From contig CAYUBI010000001.1 of assembly GCA_964443005.1 (NCBI GenBank), forward strand, positions 2,901 to 66,900: DNA of 64,000 nt, in the 5' to 3' direction. Source of the DNA: an uncultured Candidatus Marinamargulisbacteria bacterium. GTDB lineage: Bacteria > Margulisbacteria > Riflemargulisbacteria > GWF2-35-9 > CAYUBI01. Shown here in pieces: positions 6,844 through 6,992 of the stretch (positions are counted from its first letter, which is position 1; each line of letters opens with the position of its first letter). The translations under genes were made by a program, and so were the position numbers. The notes beneath the pieces were generated by a model. The model was not told the DNA's origin and searched no databases. It was given only the letters and a program-made list of their open reading frames with translations.

Positions 6844-6992
6844 TCATGCTCTGAATCGAATTCATGTAAAATATTGATGGTGGAAGTAAAGGGAAGTAGG
6901 AGTAACTCGGCGAAAGTAGACGGAAGTTGGTATTGTATTAATTCTATTCTAAAAGGAATATACTAGGGTAGTAGAATATAAGGAGGTCAGTG

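Follow-up and report, generated by a model that had tools for sequence, protein, structure and literature searches.

A degenerate array of 10-bp direct repeats upstream of DhiTA-type toxin-antitoxin cassettes at a tRNA-Arg(CCT) locus: a lineage-specific, putative DNA element

The DhiTA cassettes and their tRNA-Arg surroundings

The window (the whole stretch of DNA that was analysed, 64 kb) includes a set of intact and decayed toxin-antitoxin (TA) cassettes that is interspersed with copies and pieces of a tRNA gene, as follows:

5617..6122, + strand: intact c1-type DhiTA cassette (DUF4160 toxin at 5617-5886, DUF2442 antitoxin at 5889-6122).
6993..7043, + strand: c2 DUF4160 stub of 16 codons, with its stop in an ATGA overlap with the ATG of the rsgA-like gene.
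7040-8119: rsgA-like gene, the start of which overlaps the stop of the c2 stub.
8340..8385, + strand: 5' half of tRNA-Arg(CCT), through the anticodon arm.
8386-8450: relic of a c4-like antitoxin 3' end plus spacer, directly after the tRNA-Arg(CCT) 5' half.
8562..8660, + strand: c3 DUF4160 stub, with toxin codons 1-25 fused to the last antitoxin codons.
8712..8788, + strand: full copy of tRNA-Arg(CCT), 100 nt upstream of repeat array c4.
9015..9542, + strand: intact c4-type DhiTA cassette (DUF4160 toxin at 9015-9281, DUF2442 antitoxin at 9291-9542).
10055..10131, + strand: second full copy of tRNA-Arg(CCT).

DUF4160 and DUF2442 form the DhiTA type II TA pair, in which the toxin gene comes first, and both domains are confirmed by Pfam in both intact pairs. 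The c1 and c4 toxins share 43% identity, and the antitoxins of the array-bearing cassettes only 30-42%. Sequence searches of the PDB with toxin and antitoxin gave nothing useful. The dhiTA pair of Dickeya dadantii 3937 has a regulated promoter within ~100 bp upstream of the toxin start, on which the antitoxin exerts ~50% repression and the complex a stronger one (PMC8198452), and a DUF4160/DUF2442 pair of a Thermus plasmid acts as an addiction module (PMC12724237).

The c2 and c3 copies are a recent 182-nt duplicate (93% identical), and the c3 stub is evidently an internal deletion of one cassette. A second duplication, of 167 nt and 96% identity (8676-8842 and 10019-10185), carries the tRNA, and the distance from array to tRNA pieces is 66-100 nt. 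The region, which is linked to tRNA-Arg(CCT), abounds in duplications, deletions and cassette swaps.

Anatomy of the 10-bp repeat array and its promoter slot

A first-pass annotation of this DNA had described a conserved leader motif in four copies upstream of every DUF4160 start. The four copies are borne out: a degenerate 30-mer finds four sites, all on the + strand (5530-5559, 6900-6929, 8469-8498 and 8907-8936), where shuffled sequence gives an expectation of 0, and nhmmer with a profile of the motif copies returns the same four sites, and no others, over the 64 kb. The near-exact long form of the motif lies at 6883-6930 and 8452-8499 (0 expected by chance, 100 shuffles); the first of these had been placed at 6884-6930 and begins one nucleotide earlier. 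Four DUF4160 starts do follow the motif, but only two belong to intact genes and the other two to stubs. The interval from motif start to ATG, earlier put at about 90-100 nt, measures 96-119 nt, while the TATAAT-like box and strong Shine-Dalgarno sequence (SD) reported downstream are present in all copies as TATAAT or TATACT followed by AGGAG. The repeat arrays that correspond to these copies, and the predicted promoter blocks beside them, are:

5512..5561, + strand: repeat array c1, with the five 10-nt units GGAAACAGAG GTAAGCAGGA GTAACCTCGC AGAAGTAGAC GGAAGTTGAA (nhmmer E 2.6e-14).
5566..5595, + strand: c1 promoter block, with the pyrimidine-rich -35 block TTCTAATTCTGTTCTA and TATAAT at 5590-5595.
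6882..6931, + strand: repeat array c2, with the best-kept periodicity (identified by shuffles, nhmmer and lag-10 self-match).
6938..6964, + strand: c2 promoter block, TTAATTCTATTCTA ... TATACT.
8451..8500, + strand: repeat array c3, the recent duplicate of c2 and the positional orthologue of copy A at locus L095 of a related genome.
8507..8533, + strand: c3 promoter block, TTAATTCTATTCTA ... TATAAT.
8889..8938, + strand: repeat array c4 (identified by degenerate pattern, nhmmer and lag-10 self-match).
8942..8970, + strand: c4 promoter block, TTCTATTTCTGTTCAA ... TATAAT.

A description as five degenerate 10-bp direct repeats of the unit GGAAGTAGRC, together ~50 bp long, fits the motif best, and array c2 displays them in 10-nt register as GGAAGTAAAG GGAAGTAGGA GTAACTCGGC GAAAGTAGAC GGAAGTTGGT. 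At a lag of 10 nt, self-match reaches 0.53-0.62 for the window copies and 0.45 for the copy of the relative, compared to 0.05-0.39 at lags 1-9 and 11-19, and a second peak occurs at lag 20 (0.43-0.57). By copy, the lag-10 values are 0.55 for c1 (p 0.0002), 0.62 for c2 (equalled in 0/5000 shuffles) and 0.53 for c4 (p 0.0008). Against shuffles, the lag-10 periodicity has p<=0.001, and p<=0.014 if any lag is allowed. The repeats are not called by TRF at a score threshold of 30, whereas they are significant by autocorrelation. An A occupies unit positions 3-4 in 24/25 units, and the differences between copies cluster at unit positions 5 and 8, a periodic pattern of conservation that is marginal by chi-square on the unit-position counts (p ~0.06). 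The half-site pair RAAGTA-N4-GAAGT occurs with zero mismatch in the arrays only, and a search for further array sites in the 64 kb and in 1.6 Mb of loci found none beyond the arrays and no sign of a regulon.

Two other accounts of the array's makeup were rejected. Descent of the array from the tRNA 5' half or the antitoxin 3' end is not favored, as local alignments are no better than shuffles (p>0.05). By eye, c1 and c4 show an inverted repeat that would pair the right half of the array with the -35 block; L095 copy A and c2/c3 have not kept it, and neither a repeat finder nor the folds detected it.

Past the motif, the four copies remain homologous through the -35 block, -10 box and SD as far as the first codons. 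They belong to a longer duplicated 'slot' that extends from the array, by way of these promoter and SD elements, to the first 16-25 codons. The five repeats are found 56-127 nt ahead of the toxin ATG, and 26-28 nt separate the end of the array from the -10 box in 5/5 full copies, although 5' UTR length varies by up to 23 nt. In the predicted, unmapped promoter of the DhiTA-type cassette, the array would span about -40 to -90. The slot promoter is probably of the sigma-70 type, with a weak -35 (hexamers TTCTAA, TTCTAT and TTCAAG) and a perfect or near-perfect -10. The -35 block of c1, TTCTAATTCTGTTCTA, is identical to that of L095 copy C. TATAAT likely serves as the active -10, since the homology of the c1-type cassette starts at this box in three genomic contexts and since, at locus L098, the TATAAT of the cassette falls on the -10 of a tRNA-Arg promoter that has been duplicated.

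The motif is not a folded RNA but, most probably, a non-coding DNA element. The earlier reading of the motif as a cis-regulatory RNA is unsupported, as secondary structure, covariation and Rfam matches are all absent and the motif precedes the -35 of the shared promoter. RNAalifold on the copies gives -2.92 kcal/mol with an unfavourable covariation term (+0.62) and one compensatory pair only, and the z-scores of single-sequence folds range from 0 to +0.6 for the + strand, with a best value of -1.35 for the - strand. The only Rfam matches are to tRNA and tmRNA, whether the whole window is searched at the gathering threshold or 5300-10300 at E<=1.

Weak -10-like boxes do occur upstream of the array, and an RNA-level role might take the form of the 5' end of a longer leader, a leaderless micro-ORF or an effect of its C-rich, G-poor complement on an antisense transcript (e.g., as a Rho-loading site). 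One reading frame is open in all copies, with an ATG in 4/5 copies that is aligned in c2, c4 and L095 copy A and lies one codon later in c1, and in most copies a -10-like hexamer (TATAAT, TAAAAT, TTAAAT, TATAAT) precedes this ATG by 3-5 nt; c1 also has a TTGACT-16-TACAAT match at 5484-5511. The predicted peptides, of 16 (c1), 18 (c4), 29 (c2) and 30 (L095 copy A) codons, share the core EV..(R/K)SN.A(E/K)V(D/N). Neither their length nor their C-terminus is conserved, however, and the start codon is missing in c3. The variable columns divide 6/6/5 among the codon positions, a non-coding pattern, the micro-ORF has no SD and the upstream -10-like boxes have no consistent -35. A small protein-coding ORF in the array was rejected because of this distribution of variable columns, the lack of an SD and the unequal lengths. 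A leader that starts upstream of the array must also contend with the downstream TATAAT, which is a promoter element common to relatives. A role at the RNA level is thus considered very unlikely.

Distribution in relatives and history of the slot

The strict pattern GAGTAA-N8-AAGTANACNGAAGTTG, which is too strict for the diverged L095 copy, has 0 matches in GTDB species genomes and 0 in IMG/VR, and three JGI metagenome matches are ascribed to chance, their flanks having neither a toxin start nor the remaining motif. By exact-protein look-up, the c1 toxin clusters with a Candidatus Margulisiibacteriota protein found on contigs L094-L096 (including GCA_964358175.1). The array is present in one related Margulisiibacteriota metagenome-assembled genome (MAG), as one full copy and two partial copies at cassette junctions. 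The order at L095 is tRNA-Arg 5' half, antitoxin 3' relic, full array A, c4-type cassette, array B, c1-type cassette and copy C. Copy B is a partial array (R2-R5) that begins inside the stop region of antitoxin A, with the TAA in R2, and is only 9 nt from the -10 box. Copy C consists of a partial array and -35 block, holds the stop of antitoxin B (TAG in R4) and has no cassette after it. Window positions 8342-8635, which include c3, are the positional orthologue of L095 137-428 (78% identity).

Upstream of the DUF4160 homologues of L001-L003, L008-L010, L098, L100, L102, L103 and L107, the array is absent, and L007 has a diverged array remnant only. A general association of DUF4160 genes with 10-bp periodic arrays was considered and dropped, as none was found in eight other loci. 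The nearest relatives of the c4 and L095-A cassettes lie among the loci that lack the array: the c4 pair is closest to L107 (toxin 81%, antitoxin 71%) and then to L001 (76% and 71%), and the L095-A pair is closest to L100 (toxin 91%, antitoxin 70%). Because one related MAG carries the array while the nearest toxin relatives do not, the array follows the host lineage and locus and not the TA family. The mgtA gene, with best matches of 81% in other phyla, is widely transferred and unusable as a synteny anchor, and the rsgA-like gene, tried as an anchor, lies in unrelated contexts.

The c1 cassette has a composite ancestry. Its toxin is 94% identical to that of L095-B, while the antitoxin is only 61% identical and is nearer to L008/L009 (72-77%). 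The c1-type homology shared by the window, L095-B and L098 runs from the -10 box (5590) to 6109, a few codons before the antitoxin stop, and that with L007 from the -35 block (5566) onward. As these edges fall at the -10 box and the -35 block, c1 of the window joins a c1-type cassette to a slot of the c4 type, and this hybrid origin explains why the motif stood out against diverged coding sequence. At L098, a c1-type cassette lies behind a 40-nt duplicate of the tRNA-Arg promoter instead of the array, which shows the array to be apparently dispensable for a cassette of this type.

The first-pass annotation had listed three outcomes that would count against its motif, and these are largely what was found: no structure was detected, DUF4160 genes of relatives lack the motif in every lineage but one, and the motif belongs to a duplicated segment of greater length. 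The last of these raises the question of whether the array is a passive flank, i.e., the functionless upstream edge of a copied segment that is young compared to the coding sequences swapped in behind it. The 182-nt duplicate of c2 and c3, the 167-nt duplication with the tRNA, and the derivation of c3 and its preceding sequence from cassettes by deletion are all in keeping with such a history. Array identity is 71-78% in every pair of independent copies, which fits uniform divergence, and the 27/51 invariant columns of the array (by alignment count) are about what uniform divergence predicts. Between c1 and c4, the array is the best-conserved block (73-77%, versus a coding-sequence mean of ~55%); this contrast is explained by the hybrid c1, and the cassettes have closer relatives elsewhere. 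In the only orthologous pair, window c3 and L095 copy A, the array (73%) is no better conserved than the adjacent and apparently functionless left-hand spacer with its relic (80%).

Other observations are less easily reconciled with a passive flank. In the c3 and L095 copy A pair, the neighbouring stretch from -10 to SD has only ~49% identity, below that of the array. Neutral decay leaves unexplained the 10-bp phase and the near-invariant AA, which are retained in four lineages, and also the distance to the -10 box, which is held within 2 nt despite variable UTRs. The non-coding identities of 73-80% exceed the 56-60% at third codon positions of orthologous toxins between the window and L095 genomes, a comparison that is weakened by the difference in GC content (35% versus 41%), which inflates third-position divergence. 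The evidence for selection on the array is therefore mixed, and a functionless flank is regarded as rather unlikely, if still a serious contender.

The array and -35 block may alternatively be a recombination or junction repeat at which TA cassettes insert, duplicate or are lost, either as an att-like target of a trans-acting recombinase or as portable homology for RecA-mediated unequal crossing-over. At L095, the A and B blocks are flanked by a 56-nt direct repeat (77%) of R2-R5 plus -35 block, and the right-hand copy, without a cassette, resembles an 'empty slot'. The partial copy R2-R5 forms the junction of cassettes A and B, and in the window an array occurs at each junction between successive blocks. 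Recombinant joints are many (e.g., the hybrid c1 and the mismatched ancestry of its toxin and antitoxin), and DhiTA cassettes without an integrase are elsewhere flanked by tRNA-Arg direct repeats (12 nt at L107, 15 nt at L008 and 40 nt at L098). These flanking repeats, however, differ in sequence and length among loci, unlike those of a single site-specific system, and plain tandem duplication would equally yield repeats at junctions. None of the 28 Pfam-scanned window ORFs, including all those around the cassettes, matches a recombinase family, and no recombinase is called on the L094-L098 contigs. The repeats are moreover direct and purine-rich, with no inverted core-type sites and no attC-like palindrome. 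A junction repeat is accordingly judged unlikely. A more elaborate form of this idea, in which the array, its GC-rich central unit and the -35 block would be the docking or crossover site of an integrase-less, integron-like platform that shuffles self-promoted DhiTA cassettes by tRNA-Arg, relies on a recombinase encoded elsewhere and mixes toxin and antitoxin genes, is highly improbable.

Candidate function and comparison with known systems

The array is a lineage-specific, putative element. Its candidate function, which is preferred to the alternatives above but proposed only tentatively, is that of a DNA-level array of phased protein-binding sites that modulate the slot promoter. The same sequence recurs on one helix face over five turns, so a putative protein would bind the phased sites upstream of the -35 and modulate the promoter, in a layout like that of winged-helix response regulators and of iteron-type or ribbon-helix-helix repressors. 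The whole slot was duplicated and recombined within the tRNA-Arg(CCT)-linked hotspot to give the four copies, and cassettes of different DUF4160 subfamilies now stand behind one kind of slot. Both the binding of a protein to the array and an effect on transcription are predictions from sequence.

The putative binder is more likely a factor of the host lineage than the TA proteins, given that array and antitoxin do not vary together. An operator of the TA complex is also unlikely because the c1-type cassette of L098 uses a different upstream sequence; thus, the array is probably not a DhiTA autoregulatory operator. Earlier suggestions that the motif is a protein-binding site or a recombination core have each gained some support, from the 10-bp periodicity and from the cassette-junction copies in the relative, and both stay viable. 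The candidate binding function is itself weakened by the 9-nt spacing of L095-B, by the nearest TA relatives that lack the array and by the lack of additional sites in the 64 kb.

If a host factor does bind the array, the little-studied DhiTA (DUF4160/DUF2442) family would gain its first defined cis element, and the host lineage would have placed several acquired TA cassettes under common control. If the array is instead a recombination repeat, it marks a compact tRNA-Arg hotspot where tiny, integrase-less TA cassettes are gained, swapped and decayed. For hotspots of this kind, a motif that is seemingly conserved before every paralogue calls for caution, as it can be explained by slot duplication and cassette replacement.

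The dhiTA locus of Dickeya dadantii 3937 has the same gene pair and toxin-first order as found here. Its operator sequence is undefined, and the array of the window lies upstream of the -35 and not over the promoter. The autoregulatory operators of type II TA systems consist of repeated sites in the TA promoter region, which is also observed here; by contrast, the array is not co-inherited with a cognate antitoxin, being missing from L107, L001, L100 and L098.

Integrons carry accessory direct repeats at attI, just upstream of exchangeable cassettes. The array likewise provides repeats upstream of cassettes and at cassette junctions, but the locus is not an integron: no intI is found among the 28 Pfam-scanned window ORFs, the junctions have no inverted repeat or hairpin signal, each cassette is self-promoted and the repeats are 5' and not 3' of the cassette. 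Elements that integrate at tRNA genes by tyrosine recombinases have arm-type sites and att repeats, with the arm sites normally not at both ends of the insert. Adjacency to tRNA-Arg, tandem direct repeats of ~10 bp and inserts flanked by direct repeats are shared with these elements, while no integrase among the Pfam-scanned ORFs and no core-type inverted repeats are found here.

ParR/parC and the omega heptads are iteron-like operators of ribbon-helix-helix proteins that usually overlap or flank the -35/-10 in partition or plasmid-control operons. Several short direct repeats beside a promoter, which in these operators are read cooperatively, are common to them and the array, whereas no such protein is encoded beside the array. 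The F1-F3 sites of OmpR are located at about -40 to -100. With sites of the OmpR/PhoB type, the array shares the 10-bp spacing of half-sites, their placement on one helix face and a position just upstream of a promoter with a weak -35. This likeness is architectural only, as the host belongs to a distant phylum, no candidate regulator was recognized and no more sites occur in the 64 kb. It extends to the form of the CpxR box, GTAAA-N5-6-GTAAA, a direct-repeat site of an OmpR/PhoB-family response regulator (PMC9600279), to which the array pairs GTAAG-N5-GTAAC and GTAGA-N5-GTTGA are similar.

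A cassette remnant and tRNA-Arg copies at the hotspot

Window 8386-8450 directly precedes array c3, one of the four ~50-bp arrays of 10-bp direct repeats upstream of the DUF4160/DUF2442 (DhiTA) cassette promoters. This stretch and the one directly before L095-A (L095 183-240), the full array of a c4-type cassette on a contig of a related Margulisiibacteriota MAG, can both be aligned to the c4 antitoxin gene at its 3' end and to its downstream spacer (window 9505-9580). The aligned stretch contains a TATAAT-like box immediately left of the array and is the remnant of a deleted c4-like cassette. 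After c4 itself, debris of another gene (9570-9990) interrupts this spacer at the point where an array would start. The remnant in the window follows the first of three tRNA-Arg(CCT) sequences:

8340-8385, tRNA-Arg(CCT) 5' half
8712-8788, full tRNA-Arg(CCT) copy
10055-10131, full tRNA-Arg(CCT) copy

The junction of the tRNA half with the relic is common to the window and L095 and is, therefore, older than the split of the two genomes. Both full copies lie inside a 167-nt duplication of 96% identity (8676-8842 and 10019-10185). The third copy may be impaired, as it scores only 40 bits compared to 66 bits for the second.

Two adjacent and very stable hairpins at 8205-8295 are flanked by a tRNA-Arg promoter relic (8147-8192) and the tRNA 5' half. 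This segment folds with a minimum free energy of -42.3 kcal/mol on the plus strand (z -4.7) and -44.9 kcal/mol on the minus strand (z -5.4), with none of 200 shuffles equally stable. The hairpins have no Rfam match, no second copy in the window and no counterpart in the comparison loci; they may mark the insertion of a small palindrome or form a structured RNA.

Toxin and antitoxin histories, and a candidate promoter/operator block

The c1 cassette (window 5617-6122) and L095-B, the c1-type cassette with a partial array (L095 936-1449), have toxins that are 94% identical, while their antitoxins are only 61% identical. With the antitoxins of L008 and L009 (two loci without the array), that of c1 shares 72-77% identity, and the toxins of these loci are only 73-79% identical to the c1 toxin. 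The c1 toxin and antitoxin have separate histories, which suggests that antitoxins were swapped by recombination between the two genes.

The c4-type cassettes of other, GC-richer organisms share an upstream block, TTGAGTTAGCGTATGACTTTCAATATAAAT(A/C)AGGTATAAT, which is different from the array and is a candidate promoter/operator of that branch of the DUF4160/DUF2442 family:

L001 2930-3000, conserved upstream block
L100 1750-1810, conserved upstream block
L102 255-315, conserved upstream block

Genes at or adjoining the hotspot

At window 6993-8119, translation of a 16-codon toxin stub is coupled through an ATGA overlap to that of an rsgA-like GTPase gene. The best homologues of the GTPase gene are from Margulisbacteria (71-73%), followed by Firmicutes (~57%), and the toxin-antitoxin promoter slot appears to have been captured by this foreign gene. 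A methyltransferase gene (6139-6843) likewise comes after the c1 cassette. For the MgtA-type P-type ATPase gene that adjoins the hotspot (10247-12844), the top matches (up to 81%) come from unrelated phyla (e.g., Gemmatimonadota, Planctomycetota and Acidobacteriota), and the gene was probably also horizontally acquired. Immediately upstream of the hotspot (2512-4421) are genes for a 395-aa repeat protein, the repeats of which are MgtE_N-like, and for a protein with a SET domain. Genes of this kind are unusual in bacteria, and the exact sequences of both proteins are absent from the protein collection.

Cassettes at tRNA-Arg genes in other contigs

DUF4160-DUF2442 cassettes also reside directly at tRNA-Arg genes in unrelated metagenomic contigs, where tRNA sequence repeated in direct orientation borders them and no integrase is called in their vicinity on the contig:

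L107 3407-4041, perfect 12-nt repeat of the tRNA-Arg(CCG) 3' end
L008 409-1189, 15-nt repeat of the tRNA-Arg(CCT) anticodon arm
L098 1095-1718, 40-nt repeat of the tRNA-Arg promoter

The three cassettes resemble minimal insertion modules, or else the final remnants of islands that have decayed.
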